50,833 nt of DNA from Chloroflexota bacterium (GTDB taxonomy: Bacteria; Chloroflexota; Anaerolineae; Anaerolineales; UBA4823). Positions 9,775 to 48,818 of this stretch are shown here, in pieces (the stretch's first letter is position 1; each line of letters begins with the position of its first letter). The position numbers were made by a program, and so were the translations under genes. Location: assembly GCA_020346705.1 (NCBI GenBank), contig CP070785.1:1498788-1549620 (forward strand), written 5' to 3'. The notes under the pieces are model-generated. The model did no database searches and was not told the DNA's origin. It was given only the letters and a program-made list of their open reading frames with translations.

Positions 9775-10881
9775 TTAATATCTAAGAAGAGCACCAACCT
9801 GATTGAAATCTTGCTCCACCTCGATATCACGTAGAACTTCTACTTCACCACCATCCCGCATGACGCGGCGGACGGCCAATTCAACTGCATCGGTGATTTC
9901 TTCAAACTCATTTTCACAGAATGGGCAGCTGGAGAGTACTTCAGTGGTTAAGTATCCACATCCCTGGCAGCGATAGCCTGGAGCACGATAGCCTTCCCGG
10001 ATGACTAAGGTTTGAATGCGACCGTCATGGACAGCATTCAAAGTGTCTTCTAGGTCAATAACTCCCGCTTGGCCTTTTGCCTCGCTGGTGACAATCATTT
10101 GAACGAGCCTGGTTTGCTTCAAGCGCTCAGCCTCATAACCCACCTGAAGGGCACGATCCATGATTTCTACGTGGCTGGCAGTCTTGCTTATGGGGAATGT
10201 GCCGACGATAAGGCTTTGCCACGCCTTTGGTAAATGGCTGCGAAAGGCATTTACGTTTTTATCGGTACCACCGATCATCACCCGACGGACGTTGTTTTCA
10301 CTAAAGAACTTGGCGGAGAAATCAGCTGCTTCCTTAATATTCCGCTCAGCGACTTCTTTTGTGTAATTTGTTTGTCCCGCTGTCCCACCGCGCCGACCAG
10401 GAGCCTGAGAGCCGCCGCCTCTTTTGGTGCGGCGGACACTCTCCCCGGATAACTCGCTCTCTTTGAGTATTTCACCAAGGTGGAAGTAAAACAGCCGGGC
10501 GCCAATCTTGTCAACCACTGCGATCCCATAACCACCATAAAAATCGAGGATGTCTGCCAGCGGTTTGACATGAGGTCTTTCGCTAATCCGTACCCGATCG
10601 CGAATCGGTACGGCGATTGAGAACACTCTGAAATAGTCCTCAGCTGCACAGGAGAATAAAACAACACCCCTTCCAGACCAATCGAATTCAAAATCAACAT
10701 ATTGGATTACATTTCCGACATCATCTTTCGATTCGACATCCTTCAACATGCTACGTAAGCGTGGTTTATAAGCATCTGCTGTGCCTTTTGATGGGTCAGT
10801 GTTTAGATATACGCTTAATACAGGATGTTCGGTCTTAAAATCCAACAATTCTTGCAAATCTTTTTGGCTAAACATCGGCAT
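9775..10881 (-). CDS. eRF1-fold release-factor homologue, Vms1/ANKZF1-like (VLRF1 / baeRF-type) with a C-terminal zinc ribbon
   Basis: 368 aa. It has the central loop RRTKRGGGSQAPGRRGGTAGQ and the C-terminal CQGCG-x10-CPFCE. Overall domain order resembles eRF1 (N, M with a Gln loop, C). It lacks the RF1/RF2 PxT/SPF motifs. Confidence 0.65.
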   Translation of the reverse strand: MPMFSQKDLQELLDFKTEHPVLSVYLNTDPSKGTADAYKPRLRSMLKDVESKDDVGNVIQYVDFEFDWSGRGVVLFSCAAEDYFRVFSIAVPIRDRVRISERPHVKPLADILDFYGGYGIAVVDKIGARLFYFHLGEILKESELSGESVRRTKRGGGSQAPGRRGGTAGQTNYTKEVAERNIKEAADFSAKFFSENNVRRVMIGGTDKNVNAFRSHLPKAWQSLIVGTFPISKTASHVEIMDRALQVGYEAERLKQTRLVQMIVTSEAKGQAGVIDLEDTLNAVHDGRIQTLVIREGYRAPGYRCQGCGYLTTEVLSSCPFCENEFEEITDAVELAVRRVMRDGGEVEVLRDIEVEQDFNQVGALLRY

Positions 10882-10972
10882 CTCCTTGAATATGTTGGCA
10901 GAAAGATACTCTTTCGGGGACGTACCTGATTAACTGGAATGCGACAAGATAGAACTCGATGAATTATTTTGG

Positions 10973-12199
10973 TTACGGGCGTTTGCCAAGGATCAAATCA
11001 ACTTCAATTTCCTGGTTGTCTCTGAGGATGGTGAAAGTGATAATATCCCCAGGACTTTTTTCTCGCATGAGATAAGAAAGCAAATCACTAAAAGTCTGCG
11101 TGGTTCGACCATCGATTGCAATAATCAGGTCTCCACCGGAAGACAAGTTAAAGAATTCGGTTGACGTAGTCCCTCCACGAATTCCTGCCCGATCGGCAGG
11201 GCTATCGGGAGTAACACTTGTGACATAAACCCCTGAGGCTTGAGGCAAGCCCAAGGCTTCCTGCTGGAGGAGACTGATATCGTTCAAACTGCTGATTCCA
11301 AGATATGGATAATCATAACTTCCTTCACTAATCAGCGATGGAACGACTCGTTTAACAATGTTGATAGCGATGGCGAATCCGATACCCGAGTTAATTGGAT
11401 CGTCTTGGGAATTGATATTGTATGTCTCAATCGCCCTATTTACGCCGATTACCTCCCCATCAAGATTGAGCAGCGGACCTCCAGAATTACCCGGATTAAT
11501 GGCTGCATCGGTTTGGATGATATCGCCTGCGGTGAAAAAACTACCACCAGGCGCTTCGTTCAAGGAAGTGAGTGTACGACCCAGGCTTGATATTATCCCG
11601 GTCGTCATAGTACCGTTGAACCTGAATGGGCTGCCGATAGCAACAACTGTTTGCCCGACTTTGATCTCGTTGGAATCTCCGAGTGGCAGAGGGTGGAGTT
11701 CTTCTGCAGGGGCATTGACTTTGACCACAGCCAAATCAGAGTCAGTGTCAGTGCCAATTACTTCACCACGAACCTTATATCCTGAAGGAAAGTCGACCTC
11801 TAAGTCTGATACCCCATCAATAACATGAAAATTAGTGATGATATGCCCCTCTTTATCAATCACAAAACCAGAGCCAAGACCGTCCCCGGTTTCGGTTAGC
11901 ACCTGAATGGCAACAACTCCGGGATTGGACCGCTCATATATATCAACTAAAATGTTGTTGTTATTAATATCATGATTTTGGACCGCTGCAGGCTCAACAA
12001 CTTGAATTGGAGTTTCCTCAATGACTGGTTCCTCAACAACCGGCGACTCAATAAGAACTGGTTCAGTCACAGAGGTCAAGGTAGGTTGGGGAGGTTCTTC
12101 CGATATTACTATTGAGGGGGAGTTTGTTATCGCCTGACAGGCGAACATAATCATAGCTGCTAAAATAAAAATCACCAATAATTTATTACGATTCTTCAT
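10973..12199 (-). CDS. htrA: HtrA/DegP-family serine protease with a C-terminal PDZ domain
   Basis: It has a signal/anchor segment and a trypsin-like catalytic triad context (TNFHVI..., DLAVVKV, GNSGGPLLN). The PDZ region reads GVYVTSVTPDSPADRAGIRGG...DLIIAIDG. Confidence 0.9.
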   Translation of the reverse strand: MKNRNKLLVIFILAAMIMFACQAITNSPSIVISEEPPQPTLTSVTEPVLIESPVVEEPVIEETPIQVVEPAAVQNHDINNNNILVDIYERSNPGVVAIQVLTETGDGLGSGFVIDKEGHIITNFHVIDGVSDLEVDFPSGYKVRGEVIGTDTDSDLAVVKVNAPAEELHPLPLGDSNEIKVGQTVVAIGSPFRFNGTMTTGIISSLGRTLTSLNEAPGGSFFTAGDIIQTDAAINPGNSGGPLLNLDGEVIGVNRAIETYNINSQDDPINSGIGFAIAINIVKRVVPSLISEGSYDYPYLGISSLNDISLLQQEALGLPQASGVYVTSVTPDSPADRAGIRGGTTSTEFFNLSSGGDLIIAIDGRTTQTFSDLLSYLMREKSPGDIITFTILRDNQEIEVDLILGKRP

Positions 12200-23750: not shown

Positions 23751-24418
23751 TGCTGCTCGCAATTGACACATCCACACGAACAGTCGGCGTCGCTTTATAT
23801 GATGGGGTGCAGGTCGTTAGTGAGAAAATCTGGTTGAGTGGACAATTCCATACAGTAGAGCTGGCACCCACGGTTTCCGAGGTCATTGATCAAGCAGGAA
23901 TATCAATGGATGAATTGAAAGTGGTGGCTGTTGCAATAGGTCCAGGTTCGTTTACAGGTTTAAGAATTGGAATGTCTCTGGCAAAAGGAATGGCATTAGC
24001 AGGACGGATGGCGATAGTCGGGATTCCGTCATTAGATATCTTAGCTGCTTCCCAACCAATTGATGATAAGCCATTAGCGGCAATTTTGCAGGCAGGGCGC
24101 GGGAGAATAGCTGTTGGATGGTATAAAAATTATTCTGGTGAATGGAAAGCGGATAAGAAAGTCCAGGTCATGACACCAAGGGACCTTACCAGCAGAATAA
24201 AATCTCCAACGATTGTATGCGGGGAGTTATCAGAAGATGAGAGGCGGCTATTCAGGCGGAAGCGAATAAACGTGATATTGGCATCACCGGCACAATCCTT
24301 GAGGCGTCCATCCTTTCTGGCAGAGTTGGGTTGGCATCGCTGGCAAAGAGGGATGTCAGATGATCCGGCAGCTCTGGCGCCTGAATACCTGCATTACGAT
24401 CAACAAAACTCTGGATGA
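23750..24418 (+). CDS. tsaB: tRNA t6A37 biosynthesis protein TsaB
   Basis: It has LLAIDTSTR and IGPGSFTGLRIG. Its start overlaps the tsaE stop (TAATG). Confidence 0.9.
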   Translation: MLLAIDTSTRTVGVALYDGVQVVSEKIWLSGQFHTVELAPTVSEVIDQAGISMDELKVVAVAIGPGSFTGLRIGMSLAKGMALAGRMAIVGIPSLDILAASQPIDDKPLAAILQAGRGRIAVGWYKNYSGEWKADKKVQVMTPRDLTSRIKSPTIVCGELSEDERRLFRRKRINVILASPAQSLRRPSFLAELGWHRWQRGMSDDPAALAPEYLHYDQQNSG

Positions 24419-24984
24419 TTGAGAATTCTAAAATAACTTTCCGAGAAATGCGGAAAGATGACCTTGATTCTGTGATGGTTATCGACCATCTTTCTTTCCA
24501 GATGCCCTGGCCTGAAAGTGCGTACCGACATGACCTAATGAATAATGCCAACGCGATTCTATGGGTAGCGGAGAAGCACAGTGATGACAAAGGTGGAATT
24601 GTGGTCGGGATGATAGATGTTTGGTTGGTTCAAGAAGAAGCCCATATTGCTACGCTGGCGATTCATCCTGATTATCGAGGCCATGGTATTGCAGCTGGTT
24701 TGCTACGAAAGGTGTTATTCGAATCTTTCCAGCTGGGTGCTCGCAGAGCAATGTTGGAAGTTAGGGCCAGCAATCATGCTGCCCAAACGCTTTACAAGGA
24801 TTTCGGATTCAAAGTTGTTTCCCGGCGTAGACGTTATTACCGCGATAACAACGAGGATGCACTTCTGATGAATCTTGATAATTTGGAGGAACTTGTTTAT
24901 CGGAAGGATGAAATCTCAGCGGAACGGACCGATAATAATCAGAAGTTATCCGATGTGAATTCTGTGTGGAGAGGTGAAGAGTGA
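24415..24984 (+). CDS. rimI: Ribosomal-protein-alanine N-acetyltransferase (GNAT)
   Basis: It has the GNAT motif A HPDYRGHGIAAGLL. It occupies the canonical tsaE-tsaB-rimI position with a 4-nt overlap. Confidence 0.8.
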   Translation: MIENSKITFREMRKDDLDSVMVIDHLSFQMPWPESAYRHDLMNNANAILWVAEKHSDDKGGIVVGMIDVWLVQEEAHIATLAIHPDYRGHGIAAGLLRKVLFESFQLGARRAMLEVRASNHAAQTLYKDFGFKVVSRRRRYYRDNNEDALLMNLDNLEELVYRKDEISAERTDNNQKLSDVNSVWRGEE

Positions 24985-36002: not shown

Positions 36003-36854
36003 ATGATTGAATCATCAGCCATCACGAAACAAGAAGAGGAAATAACCCTCATCAAACCTTCCAAGGGATGGGGTTCCCTTAATCTGCGCGAGCTTTGGAT
36101 TTATCGGGAGCTGGTTTATTTTCTCACCTGGCGAGATCTCAAGGTGCGCTATAAACAGACCGCCCTGGGCGCAGGATGGGCGATATTGCAGCCCGTGCTT
36201 TCAATGGTGGTGTTTTCAATATTCTTTGGGGGTCTTCTCAATGTCGATTCAGGAGATGTTCCTTACCCGATCTTTTCTTACGCAGCTATCTTGCCCTGGG
36301 GGGTATTTGCAAAAGCACTGAATGACACCGGGCGTTCTCTGGTCTCAAATCGGGCAATGCTGACGAAAATTTATTTCCCCCGGATGGTAATTCCTTTAGC
36401 ATCTGTTTTCTCAAGTCTGGCGGATTTTCTGATCGCTTTCGTGGTCATGCTGGGTTTGATGTATTACTACCAAATCGCACCAACTTCGAATATCTGGACA
36501 TTGCCTTTATTTTTACTCCTGGCTGTGATAACCGCTCTAGGGGTTGGCTTATGGCTCTCTGCCATGAATGTCCTCTATCGAGATATCGGCTATATGATCC
36601 CATATATCACCCAATTATGGTTTTATCTCACACCTATCGTCTATTCAGCCAGTGAGGTACCAGAAGAGTGGCAGTTCTTTTATGCCTTGAATCCGATGGT
36701 GGGTGTAGTGGAGGGTTTTCGCTGGGCATTATTAGGTACCGCAGATGCACCAAGCCCAATGATTGGAGTTTCAGCAGTTATCGCATTAATTGTATTTATT
36801 AGCGGGATGTTTTATTTTCGAAGGATGGAACGTACTTTTGCAGATATGGTTTGA
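36003..36854 (+). CDS. wzm: ABC-2 type polysaccharide export permease
   Basis: 283 aa with six TM segments. The N-terminal motif is RELVYFLTWRDLKVRYKQTALGAGWAILQP. Confidence 0.85.
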   Translation: MIESSAITKQEEEITLIKPSKGWGSLNLRELWIYRELVYFLTWRDLKVRYKQTALGAGWAILQPVLSMVVFSIFFGGLLNVDSGDVPYPIFSYAAILPWGVFAKALNDTGRSLVSNRAMLTKIYFPRMVIPLASVFSSLADFLIAFVVMLGLMYYYQIAPTSNIWTLPLFLLLAVITALGVGLWLSAMNVLYRDIGYMIPYITQLWFYLTPIVYSASEVPEEWQFFYALNPMVGVVEGFRWALLGTADAPSPMIGVSAVIALIVFISGMFYFRRMERTFADMV

Positions 36855-36916: not shown

Positions 36917-38185
36917 ATGGATGAAATTGCAATTCGGGTAGAAAATTTAAGTAAGCAGTACCGCATTGGATTAACGCCAATGCGGTACCGAACGCTACGA
37001 GAAACGATTTCTGAGTCGTTCACACGGAATGGGCGAGCGAGCAGGGCTGCAAGCAAAGAGGAAGAGGGGAAAATTTGGGCTTTGCGTGATATTTCTTTTG
37101 AAGTTCACAAAGGTCAGGTTCTGGGGATTATCGGGCGTAATGGCGCAGGAAAAAGCACTTTGCTCAAGATTTTATCCCGCATCACTGAACCAACTGAAGG
37201 TTATGCTGAAATAAGAGGCAGAGTAGGATCTTTACTTGAAGTTGGGACCGGATTTCACCCTGAATTATCCGGGCGAGAGAATATTTATCTCAATGGCGCC
37301 ATCCTTGGTATGAAGCGCGAGGAGATTGATCAAAAATTCGATGAGATCGTCGCCTTTTCAGAAGTAGAAAAATTCATCGATACTCCTGTAAAACGATTTT
37401 CCAGTGGCATGTACCTGCGATTGGCATTTGCGGTCGCAGCCCATTTAGAACCTCAAATTCTGGTTGTGGATGAAGTTCTCGCAGTAGGGGATGCTGAGTT
37501 TCAACGAAAATGCTTAGGAAAAATGAACGATGTGGCAAAAGAGGGACGAACCGTCCTTTTTGTCAGCCATAATATGTCCGCGATCCTGCGATTGACCGAC
37601 GAGACGATCCTTCTCGACGAGGGACGAATCGTCTTGCGTGCGCCGACGCCTCAAGCCGTGGATCACTATATGGCTTCTGGGTTTTCACAATCTGGAGAAC
37701 GCACCTGGTCTATTGATGAGATACCATCGGAATCAGCTCCATTTCGACCGATTGCATTACGAGTCAGCGACAATGACCAGCGCCGTTACGATCGGGTTCG
37801 CTCTACAAATCCGATAACAATTGAAGTGGAATACGCTATAGACGCGCCCATCAAGGGTTTGAGAGTCGGCGTGTACATGCAGACGACGCGTGGAGAATTT
37901 GTTTTTACCTCCTTTGATACTGACAACGCCCAGCAGTTCGAGAATTACAGCGTGCGACCAGAAGGACATTACATCAGCAGATGTACCTTACCTCCAGATT
38001 TCTTGAACGAAGGTCAATATGTGCTTGGAATCAATGCCAGCTCTTACCGGGTGAAACGATATTTTCAAGATGAAAATGCCCTCGCCTTCTCAGTGGATGG
38101 TGCTGGTGCTCCTGGGAAACAATGGCCGGAAAGAAGGCTTGGACCAGTGCGGCCTCGCCTGGAATGGGATATAGACGTAAGATGA
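36917..38185 (+). CDS. wzt: Polysaccharide ABC exporter ATP-binding protein with a C-terminal Wzt-type carbohydrate-binding domain
   Basis: It has Walker A GIIGRNGAGKSTLLK, signature FSSGMYLRLAFA and Walker B ILVVDEVL. A roughly 170-aa beta-rich C-terminal extension follows (residues about 255-422, nt 37679-38185). Confidence 0.9.
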   Translation: MDEIAIRVENLSKQYRIGLTPMRYRTLRETISESFTRNGRASRAASKEEEGKIWALRDISFEVHKGQVLGIIGRNGAGKSTLLKILSRITEPTEGYAEIRGRVGSLLEVGTGFHPELSGRENIYLNGAILGMKREEIDQKFDEIVAFSEVEKFIDTPVKRFSSGMYLRLAFAVAAHLEPQILVVDEVLAVGDAEFQRKCLGKMNDVAKEGRTVLFVSHNMSAILRLTDETILLDEGRIVLRAPTPQAVDHYMASGFSQSGERTWSIDEIPSESAPFRPIALRVSDNDQRRYDRVRSTNPITIEVEYAIDAPIKGLRVGVYMQTTRGEFVFTSFDTDNAQQFENYSVRPEGHYISRCTLPPDFLNEGQYVLGINASSYRVKRYFQDENALAFSVDGAGAPGKQWPERRLGPVRPRLEWDIDVR

Positions 38186-39777
38186 AATCAAAAGCAGCCG
38201 CTAAAAAAATTCTGGGTGAAGTGCCATTTTCTGCTGATATTTATTGGTTGATGCGGCAGTCAGAGGAACCCCCAACAAAGAATTATTATCTGAACAAGCT
38301 TGATAATGCGCTTCCAGGATGGGTCGATCAAGTGGCGAAATCCAGGGCTCAGATAAATGGTGAAGGTAAGAAAATTTTGATTTTCGCGGCGCTCCATTAT
38401 TGGATTTCTCATATTACCCTGGTTGGTGCTACCTTGTCCGGATTGGGTCACGAAGTTAATTTGATGTACCTGCCATACGCCCGGTGGGAAGAGCCCATCA
38501 ATCGCTTTGATCTGCGCCAGCAAAACTTATATACCAAAAGCGTTCTTCGCAAAGCTGACACAATCCTGAAACCGGTCTCATTATTGGATGTGAAAACATA
38601 CAACGATCAGCTACCTGATCAATTGATAGAGGTGGTTGAAAAAATCTCGCTGCGCGACACTCAATATACGGAACAGCTAGAAAAAGTTGACCAGGATAGT
38701 GCGCTCTATCGACTCAGGCTGGAACGTAATCAAGAAGCAGCCCAAAAAGCCCTCCATTGGATGCGGGAGAAAACACCTGAGGTGGTCGTGATCCCCAACG
38801 GAAGCATTCTCGAAATGGGAATCGTGTATGAAGTAGCGAAATATCTGGATCTGCCGAGGATAACTTATGAATTCGGTGAACAGCGCAACCGAATCTGGTT
38901 AGCCCTCGATAAAGAAGTTATGCGACAAGAAACGGACCATTTATGGGTTTCATTCAAGGATCGTTCAGTGCCCAGCGGAGAGATAGAGAAAGTTCGGGAT
39001 TTGTTCGATTCTCGACAAAAAGCTGATTTGTGGAAGAATTTTTCCAGGCAATGGCAAATTGCTCCCACTCAGGGTGGAAGTATGGTTCGTCAACAGCTTG
39101 GTTTGGATGAGCGACCTGTTGTAGTTCTTGCGGCGAATGTCATCGGAGACAGCCTCACTCTCGGTAGGGCATTGTTCAGCGGCAGCATGACTGAATGGCT
39201 TGAGCGGACGGTGAAATTCTTTGCAGAGAGATCAGATCTTCAGCTAGTTGTGCGCATTCATCCTGGTGAACGATACACGAAGGGACCTTCCGTTGCCGAC
39301 ACAGTAAATCACGCATTAAAATCTGTCCCTGAGAACATCCATTTGATCGCGGCTGACGACCAGACCAATACTTATGATCTGCTTGAAATTGCCGATATAG
39401 GATTGGTATACACAACTACAGTTGGTTTAGAAATGGCTATGAGTGGTGTGCCCGTTCTTGTGGTCGGTCAGACACATTACCGGGGGAAGGGATTTTCTTT
39501 TGATCCGAATTCGTGGGAAGAGTATTTCTCTTTATTGACTTCTTTTTCACAAGATCAAGAATCCTTTAAATTGACTTCAGACCAGGTAAAACTCGCCTGG
39601 CATTATGCTTATGTCTTTTTCTTTGAGTATCCGGCGCCATTTCCATGGCCAATGCCGAAATTCTGGAAGGAATTGGAAGAATGGCCTATTGAACGGGTAC
39701 TGTCCCCTGAGGGGATGGCTGAATATGGTGATACCTTCAGATACCTGGTTGGAGAACCACGCAGCTGGGCAAACTAA
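38182..39777 (+). CDS. GT-B-like glycosyltransferase resembling the capsule-synthesis (KpsC/KpsS, beta-Kdo transferase-type) family; carries an HP motif
   Basis: 531 aa from ATG 38182, whose ATGA overlaps the wzt stop. The C-terminal half reads VVVLAANVIGDS...LVVRIHPGE...LLEIADIGLVYTTTVGLEMAMSGVPVLVVG. HP is at nt 39259-39264. The family assignment is from memory. Confidence 0.45.
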   Translation: MKSKAAAKKILGEVPFSADIYWLMRQSEEPPTKNYYLNKLDNALPGWVDQVAKSRAQINGEGKKILIFAALHYWISHITLVGATLSGLGHEVNLMYLPYARWEEPINRFDLRQQNLYTKSVLRKADTILKPVSLLDVKTYNDQLPDQLIEVVEKISLRDTQYTEQLEKVDQDSALYRLRLERNQEAAQKALHWMREKTPEVVVIPNGSILEMGIVYEVAKYLDLPRITYEFGEQRNRIWLALDKEVMRQETDHLWVSFKDRSVPSGEIEKVRDLFDSRQKADLWKNFSRQWQIAPTQGGSMVRQQLGLDERPVVVLAANVIGDSLTLGRALFSGSMTEWLERTVKFFAERSDLQLVVRIHPGERYTKGPSVADTVNHALKSVPENIHLIAADDQTNTYDLLEIADIGLVYTTTVGLEMAMSGVPVLVVGQTHYRGKGFSFDPNSWEEYFSLLTSFSQDQESFKLTSDQVKLAWHYAYVFFFEYPAPFPWPMPKFWKELEEWPIERVLSPEGMAEYGDTFRYLVGEPRSWAN

Positions 39778-41832: not shown

Positions 41833-42747
41833 TTGATTTTGATGAATCATAGTAATTCGATTATGAAAAACAGCTCTGAGCTGAAAATTAAACAAGACGT
41901 ACGCAAGTTCTATGACGACATTGGTTGGAAGGAAATTGGTGACGGTGTTTATCAAAATGCGCGCTATGAAGATTTGCGTCCCGTCTCTTGGGAATATATT
42001 CATAATTGTCACTTGCGAGTTTGCAGACATTTGAATCAAGAAGGTCGATATTTTCTTGATGCTGGCTCAGGTCCCATCCAATATCCCGAGTATCTAGAAT
42101 ATTCGCAAGGCTACCAGGCAAGAGTATGTGCAGACATTTCAATCGTTGCCCTTGCGGAAGCGCGACAACGGATAGGAGATCGAAGTTCTGGCGGCAACGG
42201 TCTTTTCGTTGTAGCAGATATCGCCAACCTGCCTTTTCGGAGAGATGCGTTTGACGGGGTTGTCTCGTTGCACACCATCCATCATCTACCTATTGAAGAA
42301 CACAAACAGGCTTATCAAGAGGTGTACCGGGTACTGGCGCCGTCGAAATCAGCAGTGGTTGTCAATGGCTGGCAAGATTCTTCATTAATGCGTTTTTTCG
42401 TCCTACCAATTAAATGGAAGAATCGCGCCAGGAAATGGATCAGGAGAAGCGTTAATAATTTTCGTCGTGGACGATCTAACACTTCTAATGGGAGCCGAAA
42501 ACAGAAAGGCAAAGGAACATTTGTTAGCAAACATGATGTTGAGTGGCTCAAAAGGGAAGTTGGATCTCTGATGAATCTTGAAATTCTCGTCTGGAGAAGC
42601 GTGAGTGTTCGTTTTCTACGAGGATATATCTTTCCCGACCTGGGCGGTAAGTGGCTGCTCCGCAAATTGTATGGTTTGGAGGAACGCTTCCCGCATTTTT
42701 TTGGTGAACACGGACAGTACCCATTGATCGTGATTAAGAAGGATTAA
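41833..42747 (+). CDS. Class I SAM-dependent methyltransferase with a Lys/Arg-rich insertion
   Basis: It has motif I FLDAGSGP and the downstream segments VVADIANLPF and VSLHTIHHL. A basic insert KWKNRARKWIRRSVNNFRRGRSNTSNGSRKQKGKG lies at nt 42412-42516. Confidence 0.7.
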   Translation: MILMNHSNSIMKNSSELKIKQDVRKFYDDIGWKEIGDGVYQNARYEDLRPVSWEYIHNCHLRVCRHLNQEGRYFLDAGSGPIQYPEYLEYSQGYQARVCADISIVALAEARQRIGDRSSGGNGLFVVADIANLPFRRDAFDGVVSLHTIHHLPIEEHKQAYQEVYRVLAPSKSAVVVNGWQDSSLMRFFVLPIKWKNRARKWIRRSVNNFRRGRSNTSNGSRKQKGKGTFVSKHDVEWLKREVGSLMNLEILVWRSVSVRFLRGYIFPDLGGKWLLRKLYGLEERFPHFFGEHGQYPLIVIKKD

Positions 42748-42752
42748 TTGGT

Positions 42753-43778
42753 GTGGATATGAATTCTGGTATGGATTGGAAAAATCAAGTCGTGCTCGTG
42801 ACCGGTGGAACGGGTTCCTTCGGAAAAAAATTCATCGAGGCAATGTTAAAGGATTATCACCCTCAAAAGATAATTGTCTTCAGCCGCGATGAATTGAAAC
42901 AGCACGAGATGAGAATCAGCGGATTTGACCACGTGGATCTGCGCTATTTCATCGGTGATGTTCGCGATTTGAACAGGTTGCGCAGGGCGATGCAGGGTGT
43001 TGATATTGTCGTTCATACCGCGGCATTAAAACAGGTGCCGGCCTGCGAATACAATCCTATGGAAGCGATCAAGACCAATGTGTTAGGGAGCAGCAACGTC
43101 ATTGAGGCTGCATTGGATACAGGTGTGAAGAAAGTAATGGCGCTGAGTACCGATAAAGCAGTCAACCCGATCAACCTGTATGGCGCCACGAAGCTGGCGG
43201 CAGAAAAGCTTTTCGTGCAAAGCAATGCTTATGCTGGTGGAACCGCAACTCGATACAGCAGTGTTCGCTATGGAAATGTAGTCGGTAGTCGGGGAAGCGT
43301 CATACCTGTATTCCTGAAGCAAAAGAACAAAGATAAACTCACAATTACTGATGAGCGGATGACCCGCTTCTGGATCACTTTGGAAGAAGGGATAAGATTT
43401 GTGATCCGCTGCATTGAACAAATGCAAGGCGGTGAGGTGTTCGTACCAAAAATCCCCAGCATGAAGGTGGTTGATGTCGCCAGGGTGATTGCGCCTGATG
43501 CAGAATTGAAATCGATCGGCATCAGGCCTGGAGAAAAGCTGCATGAAGTGTTGATCCACGAGGATGAAGCGAGGCTGACGCTCGAATTGGAGGATATGTT
43601 CGTTGTCCAGCCTTCTGAAGCCCTGTGGTTTGGACACGAATGGCAAGAAATAGGGAAAACTCTCCCAGATGGATATCGATATGCCAGTGATAATAATACC
43701 GATTGGCTAACGATCGAACAACTTCGGGATATTGTTTCCACGGTTGAAGCTGAACAAGATCTAAGTTCTGGCTTTTAA
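42753..43778 (+). CDS. UDP-N-acetylglucosamine 4,6-dehydratase, PseB/FlaA1/CapD-like
   Basis: It has VLVTGGTGSFGKKFIE, HTAALKQVP, STDKAVNPINLYGATKLAAEKLF and RYGNVVGSRGSV. The start could be GTG 42753 or ATG 42759. Confidence 0.85.
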   Translation: MDMNSGMDWKNQVVLVTGGTGSFGKKFIEAMLKDYHPQKIIVFSRDELKQHEMRISGFDHVDLRYFIGDVRDLNRLRRAMQGVDIVVHTAALKQVPACEYNPMEAIKTNVLGSSNVIEAALDTGVKKVMALSTDKAVNPINLYGATKLAAEKLFVQSNAYAGGTATRYSSVRYGNVVGSRGSVIPVFLKQKNKDKLTITDERMTRFWITLEEGIRFVIRCIEQMQGGEVFVPKIPSMKVVDVARVIAPDAELKSIGIRPGEKLHEVLIHEDEARLTLELEDMFVVQPSEALWFGHEWQEIGKTLPDGYRYASDNNTDWLTIEQLRDIVSTVEAEQDLSSGF

Positions 43779-43861
43779 GATGAGGCGAATGATACCTAGT
43801 TTCAATTCACCGGTACCTGAACCGCAGGTCTTTACGACCTTAACCAAGTCATGTAGTTAGG

Positions 43862-44776
43862 ATGCGGATACTGGTTACCGGAGCCAGCGGCCTGCTTGGT
43901 CTTAACACGGCTCTTGAAGCCAGCCAGCAGCACGAGGTTTTCGGTAGTGTAAACAAGAATGTAATTCAGTCAAAAACTTTCACCGTAATTCAGTCAGATT
44001 TGACAGAGCCCGGTGCTCTGGAAAAGCTGATCGATGAGAGCAAACCTGACTGGGTGATAAACTGTGCTGCGCTAGCAAACCTCGATGCCTGTGAGGCCAA
44101 TCCGGCTCTGGCTGAAAAATTGAATAGCGAATTACCTGGAAAACTGGCAAATTATGTCGCCAAGGGCGGAGCGCGCCTGGTGCATCTCTCGACCGATGCT
44201 GTTTTTGATGGCGAGCGTGGAAATTACACCGAGGAGGATAAACCAAATCCGCTCAGCCTATATGCCAGGACAAAGCTGAGCGGAGAACAGGTAGTATTGG
44301 CTTCCAATCCGGAGGCGATAGTTGCCCGGGTCAACTTATTTGGATGGAGTTTGAGTGGGAAGAGAAGCCTGGCAGAGTGGTTCGTGAACAATCTATCCGC
44401 TGGTAACAAGATCATGGGCTTCACGGACGTTTATTTCTGTCCATTACTCGTCAACCACCTGGCCACTTTATTATTGAGGATGCTGGAGCTTGAATTGCAT
44501 GGGCTTTATCACGTTGTCTCAAGCGAATGCGCAAACAAGTTCGATTTCGGTGTGAGGCTGGCAAGGTTATTCGGTTTTGATGAATCTTTGATCGAGCCAG
44601 CTTCGGTATCTGAGTCTGGTTTGAGTGCAGCCAGATCACCGATGCTGACTTTGAAAGCTGACAAGCTTATTCGAGAGTTGGGAGAACCAACTCCCGGGTT
44701 AACAGAAGGGCTGGCAGGTTTTTACTCGCAATATCGTGATGGGTATCCAGAATTCATACAGGGGATGAAAGTCTGA
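43862..44776 (+). CDS. SDR, dTDP-4-dehydrorhamnose reductase (RmlD)-like sugar-nucleotide 4-reductase
   Basis: It has RILVTGASGLLG, INCAAL and HLSTDAVFDG followed by YARTKLSGE. At 304 aa it is RmlD-sized. Confidence 0.7.
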   Translation: MRILVTGASGLLGLNTALEASQQHEVFGSVNKNVIQSKTFTVIQSDLTEPGALEKLIDESKPDWVINCAALANLDACEANPALAEKLNSELPGKLANYVAKGGARLVHLSTDAVFDGERGNYTEEDKPNPLSLYARTKLSGEQVVLASNPEAIVARVNLFGWSLSGKRSLAEWFVNNLSAGNKIMGFTDVYFCPLLVNHLATLLLRMLELELHGLYHVVSSECANKFDFGVRLARLFGFDESLIEPASVSESGLSAARSPMLTLKADKLIRELGEPTPGLTEGLAGFYSQYRDGYPEFIQGMKV

Positions 44777-44798
44777 TTTGAGAGATCAGGAGGCGGTT

Positions 44799-45866
44799 AT
44801 GGAAATTAAGATTGGCTCCAACGTAATCGGTGAAAACCACCCGACATATTTCATTGCAGACATCTCCGCCAATCATGATGGTGATCTGGAACGAGCCAAA
44901 TTATTGATCCGGTTAGCAGCTGAATCAGGCGCCGATGCAGCGAAATTTCAAAATTTCCGGGCTCCTGAGATCGTCTCCGATTTCGGTTTTCGCTCAATGC
45001 AGGATCAAGTTTCACACCAGGCGACCTGGATGAAAAGTGTCTTCGAGGTATACCAGGATGCTTCAATCCCCTTTGAATGGACACCCATTCTCAAAGAGGA
45101 ATGTGACCAGGCAGGAATAGATTATTTCTCATCGCCTTATGATTTTGAAGCAATTGATATGCTTGACCAATATGTGCCGGCTTACAAAATCGGATCGGGT
45201 GAAATTACCTGGTTGGAAGCATTAGAACGGATGGCGAATTTGGGGAAGCCGGTGATCCTGGCAACTGGCGCTTCGGACATCGGGGATGTTCAGAGGGCTG
45301 TACATACAATTTTGAGAATCAATCCCCAGCTGGTACTGATGCAGTGCAATACGAACTACACAGCCAGCGATGAAAACTTCGATCATATACATTTGCGAGT
45401 CTTAGAGACCTTCCGGGTGATGTTTCCAGATGTAATCCTTGGATTATCGGACCATACATTTGGGCCAACAACTGTGTTAGGCGCAGTCGCACTCGGGGCG
45501 CGAGTGATTGAAAAACATTTTACAGATGATAACGACCGGGTTGGACCCGATCATCCCTTCTCCATGACCCCAACAACCTGGCGAGACATGGTTGACCGGA
45601 CGCGAGAAATGGAACGCGCGCTGGGTTCGGCTGATAAGCGGGTTGGGGAGAATGAACAAGAAACGGTCGTCATTCAACGCCGCTGCTTGCGAGCAGCCAG
45701 GGATATCGCCAAAGGTGAGATTCTTTCAAGGAAGATGATCGCCGTGCTCCGACCGGCGACAAAGGGGGCTATCTACCCTTATGAGATCAGCCAGGTAATT
45801 GGTGCGAAGGCGATCACGGATATCACTGCCGGGCAAGAGCTGCGCTGGACGGATTTAGGCGAATAA
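44799..45866 (+). CDS. NeuB-family nonulosonic acid synthase (PseI-like) with a C-terminal SAF domain
   Basis: It has YFIADISANHDGDLERAKLLI and KIGSGEITWLEALE. The C-terminal SAF-like region reads RRCLRAARDIAKGEIL...ITAGQELRWTDL. AGGAGG lies 5 nt upstream of ATG 44799. Confidence 0.85.
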   Translation: MEIKIGSNVIGENHPTYFIADISANHDGDLERAKLLIRLAAESGADAAKFQNFRAPEIVSDFGFRSMQDQVSHQATWMKSVFEVYQDASIPFEWTPILKEECDQAGIDYFSSPYDFEAIDMLDQYVPAYKIGSGEITWLEALERMANLGKPVILATGASDIGDVQRAVHTILRINPQLVLMQCNTNYTASDENFDHIHLRVLETFRVMFPDVILGLSDHTFGPTTVLGAVALGARVIEKHFTDDNDRVGPDHPFSMTPTTWRDMVDRTREMERALGSADKRVGENEQETVVIQRRCLRAARDIAKGEILSRKMIAVLRPATKGAIYPYEISQVIGAKAITDITAGQELRWTDLGE

Positions 45867-45884
45867 CCTGCCAACAAAATTCCT

Positions 45885-46982
45885 TTGACCCGCCTAATTT
45901 ACTTCTCGAGGGATTATACAAACCACGATCTTCGTTTTCTTTCAGCCCTAGCCAGTACAGATTACGAAGTTTACTATCTCAGATTGGAGCGGAGACGCGA
46001 ACAACTCGAAGATCGACCTCTACCAGTTGCAGTTCGCCAGATCAAATGGGCGGGGGGAAAACAGACGGTCAATTTTTTTGATGGGCCAAATCTGTTGCTC
46101 GATCTTCGCCGGGTTATCAAGGAAGTAAAACCTGACCTGATCCACGCAGGACCGATTCAGAGGAGTGCCTTCTTGGTCGCATTGTCAGGCTTTAAACCGT
46201 TGATCAGCGCTTCCTGGGGATATGATCTATTGCATGATGCTGATCGAAATTTGTTTTGGCGTGATGCAACCAGATATACCTTACAGCGAAGCGCGATCTT
46301 GATTGGTGATTGCGACACAGTTCGAAATAAAGCGATCGAATTTGGGATGCCTGACAATAAAATTGTCACTTTTCCTTGGGGTATCGAACTAGATTCGTTT
46401 ATCCCGGGTGGTTTCCCATTTCAAGGGAGTGATCAATATACTCTGTTATCGACCCGAAACTGGGAACCAATTTACGGTGTGGAAATCCTGGCGAAGGCAT
46501 TTGTCAAATCTGCCCAGAAGAATGATGAATTGAGATTGATCATGCTAGGCAATGGCTCCTTAGCCAACCAACTGCGACAAACCTTCACCAGGGGAGGAGT
46601 CATGGATCGGGTGATCTTCCCTGGACAGGTAACCCACACAGATTTGCCGAAATATTTCCAGATGGCAGATATATATGTGAGCGCCTCGCGGACTGATGGG
46701 AGTTCAATTTCCCTGATTGAAGCATTTGCGAGCGGTAGGCCAGCAATTGTCTCTGATATTCCCGGAAACAGGGAGTGGGTTGAACCAGGAGTTAATGGCT
46801 GGTGGTTCATAGATGGCGACGAGGATGACCTTGCTGAGGCAATCTTGTCTGCTGCAGACCAGCGCCAGAATTTTCCGGAGATGGGCCGTGCAGCCCGTCA
46901 AACCGCAGAAGAGAGAGCGGACTGGGGGAAGAATTTCTCCAAACTCCTGGCGGCCTATGAGGTGGCATTAGAACACGCATAA
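45885..46982 (+). CDS. Glycosyltransferase, GT4 family (GT-B)
   Basis: It reads GNGSL...FPGQV...DIYVSASRTDGSSISLIEAFASGRPAIVSDIPGNREWVEPGVNGW, which is an E-x7-E context. It has a TTG start. Confidence 0.8.
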   Translation: MTRLIYFSRDYTNHDLRFLSALASTDYEVYYLRLERRREQLEDRPLPVAVRQIKWAGGKQTVNFFDGPNLLLDLRRVIKEVKPDLIHAGPIQRSAFLVALSGFKPLISASWGYDLLHDADRNLFWRDATRYTLQRSAILIGDCDTVRNKAIEFGMPDNKIVTFPWGIELDSFIPGGFPFQGSDQYTLLSTRNWEPIYGVEILAKAFVKSAQKNDELRLIMLGNGSLANQLRQTFTRGGVMDRVIFPGQVTHTDLPKYFQMADIYVSASRTDGSSISLIEAFASGRPAIVSDIPGNREWVEPGVNGWWFIDGDEDDLAEAILSAADQRQNFPEMGRAARQTAEERADWGKNFSKLLAAYEVALEHA

Positions 46983-47827
46983 TGGAAAACCACCAACTAA
47001 AATCAAACAAAGTTGTTGCCCTGGTTCAGGCCAGGATGAGCGCTTCTCGACTGCCCGGGAAGGTGTTATTGGACATCGGGAGAAAACCGATGCTGGCGCG
47101 GGTCGTAGATCGTTCCCGCCGATCTGATTTTGTCGATCAGGTGGTCGTTGCAACAAGCCAGGAAGAAGCTGATGACCCGATAGAGACGTATTGTGATCAG
47201 CAGGGATATGATTGTTACCGAGGCAGTTTACACGATGTTTTGGACCGTTATTATCAAGCTGCAAAATTCCATTCAGCAGGAGTCGTGGTTCGCATCACTG
47301 CGGATTGTCCGATCATCGATCCGCTGGTTATTGATCAAACTTTGGACGCATTCTTTGGAAGCGGACCTCATTTGATTACAGAACGAGTTTCTGCCCCAGA
47401 ACGCGTGACACCTATACCTGATCCTGCCTGGGACTTTGCAGCCAACCGGCTGCCTCCCCCCTGGAAGCGCACATTTCCGATCGGTCTTGATACAGAGGTT
47501 TGTACATTCGCTGTACTAGAGACTGCCTGGCAAGAAGCGGACAAACCTCACCAGCGAGAGCACGTGATGCCTTTTCTATATGAAAATGATCAACGATATC
47601 GAATTTTATTGGTCAATCATGAGCCTGACCTGGGAAGTTTGCGCTGGACAGTTGATACACCCGAAGATTTGGAACTGCTCAGGGAGATCTACAGCCGCTT
47701 TGGGGGCCGGGATGATTTCTCCTGGCTGGAAGTGCTTGAATTATTTGAGCGAGAACCCGAGCTGGCGGAGATCAATGCTGAAGTTCTTCACAAGCATTAT
47801 CAGGATGTGGAGAAGATTGACGAGTAG
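46982..47827 (+). CDS. Cytidylyltransferase family protein (CTP_transf_3; SpsF/PseF/NeuA-like CMP-sugar synthetase)
   Basis: The N-terminal pattern is VVALVQARMSASRLPGKVLLDIGRKPMLARVVDR, and the family pattern ATS...DD is present. Its start overlaps the preceding stop (TAATG). Confidence 0.7.
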   Translation: MENHQLKSNKVVALVQARMSASRLPGKVLLDIGRKPMLARVVDRSRRSDFVDQVVVATSQEEADDPIETYCDQQGYDCYRGSLHDVLDRYYQAAKFHSAGVVVRITADCPIIDPLVIDQTLDAFFGSGPHLITERVSAPERVTPIPDPAWDFAANRLPPPWKRTFPIGLDTEVCTFAVLETAWQEADKPHQREHVMPFLYENDQRYRILLVNHEPDLGSLRWTVDTPEDLELLREIYSRFGGRDDFSWLEVLELFEREPELAEINAEVLHKHYQDVEKIDE

Positions 47828-47921: not shown

Positions 47922-48818
47922 ATGACATTTTTGACGGTTTTCACGGCTCCTAAACCATTTACCAATCCCCATATCAATAACATTCAAAGAAATGCGATCC
48001 AATCCTGGATTCATCTGGGATCTGAGGTAGAAGTGCTGTTAATGGGAAACGAGCAGGGGATGGCAGAGGTGGCCAGTGAATTCAATGTCCGTCATTTTGC
48101 GGAAGTAAAATGCAGTGAAGAAGGGACTCCTTATATAAATTCAATGTTTGATTTTGCAAGGGAGTCCAGTGATGCGCCATATCTGGCGATATTGAATGCC
48201 GATATCATGTTGATGCCAGATTTTTTGGAGGCCGCAAAACAGGTCGGTTCTCTGGCAGATAAGTTTTTATTTTTAGGCCGGCGATATGACCTGGAGGTAG
48301 AAAAAGAGCTGGATTTCTCCCCCGGTTGGGATGCTCGTTTGAGGGAAGAAGTTGACCGAAATGGCACCTTGCATGGCCCAGTTGGCAGCGATTATTTTCT
48401 GGTTCCACGAGATTTGCTCAATGATATGCCCGAATTCGCGATTGGACGTTCTGGTTGGGATAACTGGACGATATACCATGCCGTGAAATCTGGCTGGCCG
48501 GTGGTAGATGTAACTCGCTCCGCGATGATTGTGCATCAAAATCATGATTACAGCCACCTTCCAGGGAACAAGCCACCTTATGATCTACCTGAGACAAAGA
48601 AGAATGTCGCTATCGCGGGCGGCATGAAATCGATGTATACCATTTTAGAGGCTAACAATATCCTGGTTGATGGAGAGCTCAAGCCTGCTCCAATGAGCAT
48701 GCCCAAGCTGCTGCATCGAATTGAACTGCTGGTCACGAATGATGACCTGCAAGGTCCCCGGAAATCACTCGTGCGTTGGTTAAAAAAGAACCGGCGGAGA
48801 TACGAACGCAATCTCTAG
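47922..48818 (+). CDS. Hypothetical protein, possibly a GT-A-fold (nucleotide-diphospho-sugar transferase-like) enzyme
   Basis: 298 aa. It starts MTFLTVFTAPKPF...IQRNAIQSW and has a candidate acidic nucleotide-sugar motif in ILNADIMLMPDF. It is soluble. The assignment is tentative. Confidence 0.35.
   Translation: MTFLTVFTAPKPFTNPHINNIQRNAIQSWIHLGSEVEVLLMGNEQGMAEVASEFNVRHFAEVKCSEEGTPYINSMFDFARESSDAPYLAILNADIMLMPDFLEAAKQVGSLADKFLFLGRRYDLEVEKELDFSPGWDARLREEVDRNGTLHGPVGSDYFLVPRDLLNDMPEFAIGRSGWDNWTIYHAVKSGWPVVDVTRSAMIVHQNHDYSHLPGNKPPYDLPETKKNVAIAGGMKSMYTILEANNILVDGELKPAPMSMPKLLHRIELLVTNDDLQGPRKSLVRWLKKNRRRYERNL

Follow-up and report, generated by a model that had tools for sequence, protein, structure and literature searches.

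Can a pathway of the pseudaminic-acid (Pse) type run without its transamination, acetylation and UDP-sugar hydrolysis steps? The question is raised by a block of five genes in a 50,833-nucleotide stretch of DNA from a Chloroflexota bacterium (contig CP070785.1; the whole stretch is called the window here). The block encodes a PseB-type UDP-GlcNAc 4,6-dehydratase, a nonulosonic-acid synthase of the NeuB family (termed NeuB1) and a cytidylyltransferase, with an RmlD-like reductase and a protein of glycosyltransferase family 4 (GT4) between them. A preliminary description of the sequence proposed that the 4-keto intermediate is reduced rather than transaminated, which would lead to a 7-hydroxy-9-deoxy acid. 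Comparative genomics supported this proposal and none of the checks that were run refuted it. On balance we lean towards the view that the block is a conserved derivative of the Pse pathway that omits the second nitrogen, and that this Pse-derived route would deliver CMP-5-acetamido-7-hydroxy-3,5,9-trideoxy-nonulosonic acid for a glycan exported by an ATP-binding cassette (ABC) transporter.

The genes lie head to tail in the order PseB, RmlD-like reductase, NeuB1, GT4 and CTP_transf_3 cytidylyltransferase (Table 1). The open reading frame (ORF) listing and the profile searches agreed with the preliminary description on the coordinates and identities of all five, and placed the reductase right after the dehydratase and the GT4 between synthase and cytidylyltransferase. 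The closest solved structure to the window PseB is H. pylori FlaA1/PseB (PDB 2gn4, 384.6 bits). Against the FnlA equivalog TIGR04130 it scored 248 bits with a cut-off of 730, and it is thus not a member of the FnlA/CapE-type route to L-FucNAc or L-QuiNAc. The reductase has intact GxxGxxG, STD and YxxxK motifs and lies below the cut-off of the RmlD equivalog (175.8 versus 224.05 bits). A separate rmlB-rmlA-rmlD operon is found on another contig of the same genome, and its RmlD is only 35% identical to the reductase of the block. The latter is therefore not the housekeeping RmlD. NeuB1 lies below both synthase equivalog cut-offs, with 280.7 versus 399.65 bits for NeuB/LegI and 257.4 versus 340.25 bits for PseI (TIGR03586). 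Its ATG start at 44799 has an AGGAGG Shine-Dalgarno sequence upstream, and gene calls of close relatives share this start, which gives a protein of 355 amino acids. The start of the cytidylyltransferase gene overlaps the GT4 stop (TAATG); the protein gave weak matches to the KdsB subfamily and 25 bits against the PseF model TIGR03584.

The window is the entire longest contig of its metagenome-assembled genome (MAG), and the source genome, presented as a single contig, is actually 629 MAG contigs joined with 100-N spacers. ORFs spanning these spacers are artefacts, e.g., the 332-amino-acid "DegT" ORF at 2188710-2189708, which joins two contigs. Since the MAG is 73% complete and fragmented, absences in it are weak evidence, and the genomes and loci of relatives were examined instead. 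A scan of species-representative genomes with the synthase gave 584 relatives, the best 80 of which were used for locus counts. These 80 are all from Anaerolineales or Chloroflexota, with 70-98% identity, and include the cultured Ornatilinea apprima, Leptolinea tardivitalis and Thermanaerothrix solaris as well as one complete chromosome. Gene presence at the 80 loci was determined by tblastn, and the denominators are the loci with enough flanking sequence. For the distribution across the order, 401 evenly sampled Chloroflexota genomes were used. In a search for synthase homologues among predicted proteins the matches listed were all at least 80% identical, and there were no distant contexts among them.

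All 34 genomes sampled from the order of the window, Anaerolineales, had NeuB1 with 64-80% identity, as against 0/11 genomes from sister orders within the same class. Elsewhere in the Chloroflexota sample the identity of the synthase was at most 42%, with a single genome, G401, excepted. The five-gene block was colinear in 63/63 Anaerolineales loci holding all five genes, and the genes around it were also retained to a high degree (Table 1).

Table 1. Features of the window, the five-gene block first, and their retention at the loci of relatives.
Feature	Position	Strand	Assignment	Loci
PseB, inverting UDP-GlcNAc 4,6-dehydratase/5-epimerase	42753..43778	+	TIGR03589 equivalog, 495.8 bits (cut-off 407.75)	70/72
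RmlD-like NAD(P)H-dependent sugar-nucleotide 4-ketoreductase (putative substrate: PseB product)	43862..44776	+	PF04321 RmlD_sub_bind, 188.9 bits	75/75, directly upstream of synthase
NeuB1, nonulosonic-acid synthase (phosphoenolpyruvate condensation), distinct clade	44799..45866	+	PF03102, 238.8 bits; SAF PF08666, 46 bits	
GT4-family GT-B protein	45885..46982	+	PF00534, 103 bits	72/74
SpsF-like CTP_transf_3 cytidylyltransferase (putative CMP-nonulosonate synthetase)	46982..47827	+	PF02348, 104.7 bits	65/65
Conserved GT-A-fold protein, 298 amino acids, glycosyltransferase-like	47922..48818	+	AlphaFold2 pLDDT 95; nearest structures weak, TM-score ~0.5	62/64
S-adenosylmethionine methyltransferase, directly upstream of PseB	41833..42747	+	PF08241	58/80 (BLASTP)
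KpsC/KpsS-like (Capsule_synth) protein, candidate CMP-ulosonate transferase	38122..39777	+	weak PF05159 match	67/68
Wzt with Wzt_C domain, ABC exporter	36917-38185	+	Wzm/Wzt families PF01061, PF00005, PF14524	64/66
Wzm, ABC exporter	36003-36854	+	Wzm/Wzt families PF01061, PF00005, PF14524	

The preliminary description had found no pyridoxal-phosphate aminotransferase, N-acetyltransferase, hydrolase or 2-epimerase between the genes of the block. This held for the whole window, where tblastn with verified seeds gave no match to PseC, PseG-PseH, a NeuD-type acetyltransferase, WecB or a NeuC-like protein. Fifty-six loci had 9 kb or more on either side of the module, and PseC/DegT, PseG-PseH, NeuD-type acetyltransferase and WecB genes were each found in 0/56 of these within ±9 kb. 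A NeuC-like gene was present in one of them, beside a second synthase gene, NeuB2 (see below). The sequence downstream of the window, as represented by the relatives L009 and G372, contained no PseC, PseH, PseG or Leg gene. Genome-wide, no protein reached the PseG cut-off in G401 or in the 17 Anaerolineales genomes searched; several of the genomes are single-contig and 95-100% complete. In two Chloroflexota with canonical Pse clusters, serving as positive controls, PseG was detected at the expected place with 249.9 bits (G273) and 185.2 bits (G103). The PseG model TIGR03590 had no match in the window's own genome, and the PseC equivalog (cut-off 423.5 bits) was found in 0/15 genomes. The PseG-PseH fusion seed of the canonical cluster L101 matched nothing in the window or in the 56 loci; no genome-wide search with a PseH model was made. 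A GNAT-family gene at 24415-24984 was considered as PseH and rejected, as it lies among housekeeping genes, with tsaE, tsaB and a gene for a uracil-DNA glycosylase as neighbours.

The other established routes did not account for the block either. The legionaminic (Leg) route was not found, with LegB-model scores of 66.6 versus 475 bits, no LegC-type gene near the module and no hydrolysing NeuC/LegG in the window genome. For the Neu5Ac route, NeuC was found neither in the window nor elsewhere in its genome, and the NeuB equivalog cut-off was not reached. The only strong Epimerase_2 protein of the window genome is a non-hydrolysing WecB (329.7 bits), which scored 70.7 bits against the NeuC cut-off of 235.9. 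Each relative had one strong Epimerase_2 protein, encoded at least 80 kb from the module where both share a contig.

G401 is from a different Chloroflexota family, of which the members G273 and G337 hold canonical Pse clusters. Its cluster has, in this order, PseB (549 bits), what is left of a pseC gene, a protein that passes the PseF equivalog (292.7 versus 205.7 bits), an RmlD-like protein (141.9 bits), NeuB1 and GT4. The G401 NeuB1 is 62-64% identical to that of the window and fails both synthase equivalogs; no other NeuB and no PseG were found in the genome. The pseC remnant (L091:13013-13594, minus strand) lies between intact PseB and PseF genes of this cluster, which has gained its RmlD-like, NeuB1 and GT4 genes. 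About 190 of 380 positions are kept, the C-terminal half is gone, and two in-frame TGA stops are located just ahead of the SFHPxK lysine motif. Of the remaining proteins, the GT4 alone accompanies NeuB1 both in Anaerolineales and in G401.

A further occurrence was found on plasmid pHL2708Y3 of the cultured alphaproteobacterium Maritalea myrionectae. The plasmid encodes a synthase of the NeuB1 clade, 52% identical to that of the window, with all signatures of the clade and an SH-aLRT support of 100. It also carries genes for an ABC transporter, PseB (54% identical), UGDH, a 291-amino-acid extended SDR, an AAC(3)/FkbH-like protein, a MaoC-SDR and a DUF4910 protein, and no DegT gene was detectable in 26 kb. 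NeuB1 together with PseB and without an aminotransferase thus recurs in three unrelated settings, i.e., in Anaerolineales, in G401 and on the Maritalea plasmid. A 915-amino-acid protein encoded on a Maritalea plasmid (L104:3298-6045) has three domains, namely CTP_transf_3, aldo/keto reductase and BNR repeats; a fusion of cytidylyltransferase and aldo-keto reductase has been remarked on in a Vibrio Pse cluster (PMC7371886).

We placed the synthase and the cytidylyltransferase phylogenetically. NeuB1 forms a clade of its own with 100/100 support and a long stem. The verified PseI clade (100/100), an SpsE-like clade and a NeuA-associated clade that includes NeuB2 are all separate from it. The cytidylyltransferases of the module share an SpsF-like clade with those of canonical Pse clusters, from which they are one short branch (0.43) away in the maximum-likelihood tree, and they are far from the NeuA/PseF type. 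The canonical Chloroflexota Pse cluster L101 has PseB, PseC, PseG-PseH fusion and PseI scores of 491.9, 469.2, 183.3 and 481.2, and its cytidylyltransferase is of the same SpsF-like type as that of the window. Compared with the canonical Chloroflexota clusters, the window proteins are 65-68% identical for PseB and 44-46% for the cytidylyltransferase, while the synthase is only 35-37% identical to PseI. The ancestry of PseB and of the cytidylyltransferase points to the Pse pathway, with the caveat that the synthase is not PseI-like and belongs to a separate clade.

The residues of NeuB1 place it in the NeuB family, with SDHT, EKHFT, KFQ, YKIGSGE and LRP kept and with the equivalents of the two metal-binding His residues, Lys53/Lys129 and Arg314 present. 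Its clade differs from the others in having Asp (ADIS) at site Glu25 and Ala (LATGAS) at site Ser154, where the other clades have Glu and Ser. The sequence around NmNeuB position 184 is QCNTNYT, with different sequences in the other clades, and a loop not found in these is inserted at NmNeuB 70-85, a region linked to recognition of sugar C4-C6 in a published comparison (PMC7371886). At the C2-specificity position named in the same paper NeuB1 has Gly (GSGE, like NmNeuB), whereas the PseI clade has Phe (ASFE). The likeness to PseI that was previously seen in the ADISANHDG motif is only superficial; SANH is common with AELSANH of PseI, but the Ser of ADIS varies in orthologues (ADIG, ADIA) and the C2 motif is not that of PseI.

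Several observations weigh against a route in which reduction replaces transamination. Genomes of relatives encode, elsewhere, DegT aminotransferases that reach 340-371 bits against PseC, below its cut-off; the best of them (371.5 bits) lies far from the module. The window MAG has two DegT-family genes elsewhere; one scored 187.6 bits against PseC and the other is a fragment adjoining a NeuD/PglB/VioB-type acetyltransferase gene on a separate 3.6-kb contig. The Maritalea cluster lacks a clear RmlD orthologue and has other SDRs only. With Gly at the C2-specificity position, as in Neu/Leg-type synthases, an altro-configured substrate is not predicted for NeuB1 by that rule. Last, PseG homology gave no identifiable candidate for the UDP-release enzyme in the 17 Anaerolineales genomes, in G401 or in the GT4, and the GT4, judged from its predicted structure, looks like an ordinary retaining GT4 without similarity to PseG.

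The DegT genes, one of them next to an acetyltransferase gene, and the fragmented state of the window MAG would fit an ordinary Pse or Leg pathway that has its aminotransferase, acetyltransferase and hydrolase genes at other places in the genome, with the RmlD-like gene serving another sugar. We consider this very improbable. No PseG passed the cut-off in the 17 Anaerolineales genomes or in G401, whereas those of the two control genomes were detected, the PseC equivalog was absent from all 15 genomes, and the window genome has no hydrolysing NeuC/LegG. The synthase fails the PseI and NeuB/LegI equivalogs and falls outside the verified PseI clade, pseC is broken within the G401 cluster, and the canonical Pse clusters of this phylum keep all their genes together.

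The preliminary description had itself offered a second explanation, in which two unrelated pathways adjoin. PseB and the reductase would make a UDP-6-deoxy-L-HexNAc for the GT4 and the glycan backbone, while NeuB1 would use ManNAc, mannose or a hexose phosphate and the cytidylyltransferase would activate that product. Pairs of dehydratase and 4-reductase that feed GT4 enzymes are common, e.g., in the QuiNAc, FucNAc and L-RhaNAc routes. The ordinary GT4 fold, nearest to UDP-GlcNAc-using enzymes, the failure to identify a UDP-sugar hydrolase and the Gly that NeuB1 shares with ManNAc-using synthases also speak for two pathways. However, NeuB1 accompanies PseB in three unrelated lineages and adjoins the reductase at every one of the Anaerolineales loci scored, and a free-ManNAc source is not conserved, with a NeuC-like gene at one locus and WecB as the epimerase of the window genome. 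Both types of cytidylyltransferase found with NeuB1 are tied to Pse pathways, and a Neu- or Kdn-like acid is already explained by the separate module of NeuB2 and a NeuA-phosphatase. In G401, the decay of pseC means that amination of the PseB product has been lost, although PseB and PseF persist beside NeuB1. Reduction of the 4-keto intermediate is favoured over two adjoining pathways because of the recurrence of NeuB1 with PseB, because of the decayed pseC and because the cytidylyltransferases are of Pse-cluster types; two pathways we regard as rather unlikely.

Based on gene content, order, families, conservation, tree positions and the absence of the canonical steps, we infer the following chemistry for the reductive route. 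PseB, by its family, would convert UDP-GlcNAc to UDP-2-acetamido-2,6-dideoxy-beta-L-arabino-hexos-4-ulose. The RmlD-like protein would reduce C4 to give UDP-6-deoxy-L-AltNAc or its C4 epimer, which would replace both transamination by PseC and acetylation by PseH. The sugar would then be freed from UDP, for which the always-adjacent GT4 is a speculative leading candidate. NeuB1 and phosphoenolpyruvate would yield 5-acetamido-7-hydroxy-3,5,9-trideoxy-non-2-ulosonic acid, and the cytidylyltransferase would presumably convert this to the CMP-sugar. By analogy, the KpsC/S-like enzyme is the likely transferase that would add the acid to a glycan bearing methyl and sulfate groups, for which Wzm/Wzt would be the exporter. 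The acid might serve as the cap read by the C-terminal domain of Wzt, in analogy to beta-Kdo-capped O-antigens.

The hexosamine has to leave UDP ahead of condensation, and the GT4 was examined with respect to this step. Its AlphaFold2 model (pLDDT 94.8) has a retaining GT-B fold closest to BshA and MshA (TM-score 0.8-0.86), which are UDP-GlcNAc-using enzymes with small acceptors. The GT-B fold and a Glycos_transf_1 C-terminal domain identify it as a member of the retaining glycosyltransferases. Its invariant residues are His14-Asp15 and Asp271-x7-Glu279, the latter forming a D-x7-E motif with Asp replacing the first Glu of EX7E. A diverged PseG was rejected, since hhalign gave a probability of 3% against a verified PseG domain and PseG was not among the top structural matches. 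It is a speculation that the GT4 acts as a functional stand-in for PseG in UDP-sugar release; otherwise it may be a 6-deoxy-HexNAc transferase. The GT-A-fold protein encoded after the block was also considered as the missing hydrolase. It has no Pfam or NCBIfam match, is absent from the G401 cluster, and has invariant residues including N92-x-D94 and H205-Q206-x-H208. With its confident GT-A fold, the lack of a close relative and its absence from G401, nothing favours a hydrolase.

Additional genes occur around the block in relatives. L009, which is 98% identical to the window, runs 5.4 kb further and contains two GT2 genes, an unassigned ORF, a sulfotransferase gene and a gene for a GFO/IDH/MocA oxidoreductase; the latter is kept downstream in 42/56 loci. 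A pair of genes for an AAC(3)-family acetyltransferase and a DUF4910/DUF2172/M28-peptidase-like protein is found between GT4 and cytidylyltransferase in five loci (L030, L044, L047, L057 and L087), and also flanks NeuB1 in Maritalea (L103:6538-8997 and 10551-11858). A remodelling of the sugar's N-acyl group is a possible role for this pair, which recurs in unrelated lineages inside NeuB1 clusters. The AAC(3)/DUF4910 pairs and the GFO/IDH/MocA oxidoreductase, together with the score of the RmlD-like protein below the RmlD cut-off, could indicate that the reductase acts elsewhere, for example as an epimerase/reductase at another position or on the nine-carbon product. The end product would then not be the simple 7-hydroxy acid, and accessory genes might modify it further. 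This is improbable in our view. Members of the RmlD family are 4-ketoreductases of nucleotide-linked 6-deoxy-4-keto sugars, the gene follows directly that of an enzyme making such a substrate, and the window is without the accessory genes.

G372, a genome of the same family as the window, contains beyond the block genes for a PAPS synthase, SDRs and a NeuA-type cytidylyltransferase. It also encodes a 674-amino-acid protein (G372:C2:278511-280535, minus strand; L089) in which a full NeuB-plus-SAF synthase is fused to a C-terminal domain of about 300 amino acids. After the fusion follow a second KpsC/S-like protein, a methyltransferase, a class-II aminoacyl-tRNA-synthetase-like protein (identified by eye), an AAC(3)/DUF4910 pair, two further sulfotransferases, a third CTP_transf_3 protein and a protein with a GNGPSL motif. 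Neither DegT nor PseG was found in this stretch. Homologues of the KpsC/KpsS-like protein adjoin NeuB homologues of several other clades (L092, L093, L098, L100 and G372), and this distribution would fit a role as general CMP-nonulosonate transferases in Chloroflexota.

A second ulosonic-acid module was found in the order, e.g., at L034:16896-18131 and L076:19476-20375. Its synthase, NeuB2, has about 300 amino acids, lacks SAF and is encoded 10-25 kb from NeuB1 in nearly every genome; in L081 the module comes with a NeuC-like epimerase. In 21 loci the NeuB2 region also encodes a fusion of a PseF-like cytidylyltransferase with a HAD phosphatase of the KdsC type. The module probably makes a Neu- or Kdn-like acid via a phosphorylated intermediate, and it was not found in the incomplete MAG of the window. 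Since the NeuB2 module is self-contained, NeuB1 and the SpsF-like cytidylyltransferase form a pair of their own.

The remainder of the window consists of housekeeping genes (1-25,500) and, from 25,576 to the end, of one glycan locus according to the ORF listing and the profile searches. The locus includes genes for UGDH, SDRs, a flippase-like protein, glycosyltransferases, GMD, an Fcl-like SDR, Wzm, Wzt, the KpsC/S-like protein, two sulfotransferases and methyltransferases. Among the housekeeping genes is one for a baeRF family 10 protein (archaeo-eukaryotic release-factor-like; 9775-10881, minus strand, 119.6 bits), which adjoins genes for an HtrA-type protease and DnaJ. Elsewhere in the genome, the acetyltransferase on the 3.6-kb contig mentioned above (G000:C1:2189201-2192778) is fused to an N-terminal lipoyl/biotinyl-carrier domain, and its neighbours are the DegT fragment and 2-oxoacid dehydrogenase subunits resembling E1 alpha and E1 beta. 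This arrangement suggests an N-acylation of amino sugars that is fed directly from a 2-oxoacid via the lipoyl arm.

Nonulosonic acids are usually classed as Neu, Leg or Pse by their synthase. The module defines a fourth well-separated synthase clade, tied to PseB and a reductase and without an amination step. If the proposed route is correct, genes and enzymes would for the first time be assigned to the formation of mono-amino 9-deoxy nonulosonic acids, a class seen only once, as a chemical structure, in a colorectal-cancer-associated Fusobacterium. The sugar would also be a core trait of an abundant and little-studied order of sludge and sediment, which bears on the sialic-acid-like signals reported for environmental biomass such as granular sludge. 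The signatures of NeuB1 would allow genome surveys to predict the sugar, and the cultured carriers Ornatilinea, Leptolinea, Thermanaerothrix and Maritalea make the prediction directly testable. In the open-access literature we found nothing on nonulosonic acids in Chloroflexi or Anaerolineae, and no pathway to trideoxy nonulosonic acids, no genes assigned to the Fusobacterium acid and no route of PseB with a 4-reductase. As a tentative extension, which we consider less likely than not, the cassette of reductase, NeuB1 and GT4 might be the so far unrecognised route to mono-amino 3,5,9-trideoxy nonulosonic acids ("deamino-pseudaminic" or fusaminic-type) in which the GT4-fold protein replaces PseG. 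All Anaerolineales would then have the product as a core part of their envelope, where it would cap or prime a sulfated wall polymer exported by an ABC transporter, and the cassette would have spread horizontally into Pse clusters of other phyla.

Compared with known systems, the block follows the logic of the pseudaminic pathway of Campylobacter, Helicobacter and the Chloroflexota clusters L101, L095 and L096 with respect to PseB, condensation by a NeuB-family enzyme and a final cytidylyltransferase. It differs in having the RmlD-like reductase and GT4 in place of PseC, PseH and PseG, in a synthase of a separate clade, and in a predicted product with a 7-hydroxyl instead of a 7-acylamino group. 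The routes to UDP-6-deoxy-HexNAc (UDP-QuiNAc, and L-FucNAc, L-RhaNAc and L-QuiNAc of the FnlA/CapE type) likewise employ a UDP-GlcNAc 4,6-dehydratase followed by a 4-ketoreductase, with products often used by GT4 enzymes. In the block, however, the dehydratase is of the PseB type and the dehydratase-reductase pair is tightly tied to a nonulosonate synthase and a cytidylyltransferase. Among solved structures, the synthase of the block matched SpsE best (172.6 bits), which belongs to the sps legionaminic genes of Bacillus subtilis, and the cytidylyltransferase of the block is SpsF-like. Unlike the block, sps has an aminotransferase, an acetyltransferase and SpsG, and SpsE-like sequences belong to a different clade with an ASYE motif. 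Beta-Kdo capping by WbbB in Klebsiella O12/Raoultella and the beta-Kdo linkers of KpsC/KpsS likewise combine an ABC-exported glycan, a Wzt C-terminal domain, a Capsule_synth-like transferase and CMP-ulosonate supply in one locus, whereas the acid here would be a nine-carbon NeuB product and not Kdo, with putative roles for transferase and cap.

The closest chemical counterpart is from Fusobacterium nucleatum 25586. Its O-chain has 6-deoxy-L-AltNAc and a 5-amino-3,5,9-trideoxy-nonulosonic acid, as given in a 2020 paper that cites Vinogradov 2017, and in that paper's account the acid is the only trideoxy nonulosonic acid reported (PMC7371886). It is of the same class as the predicted product (5-amino, 7-hydroxy, 9-deoxy) and occurs alongside the hexosamine expected from PseB and 4-reduction. 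By our own stereochemical reasoning it would be the C4 epimer of 7-hydroxy Pse, C4 being the centre that the synthase creates. The F. nucleatum acid is known only as a chemical structure, whereas the Anaerolineales product is predicted from genes alone; given this acid, the predicted class of sugar is not chemically unprecedented.

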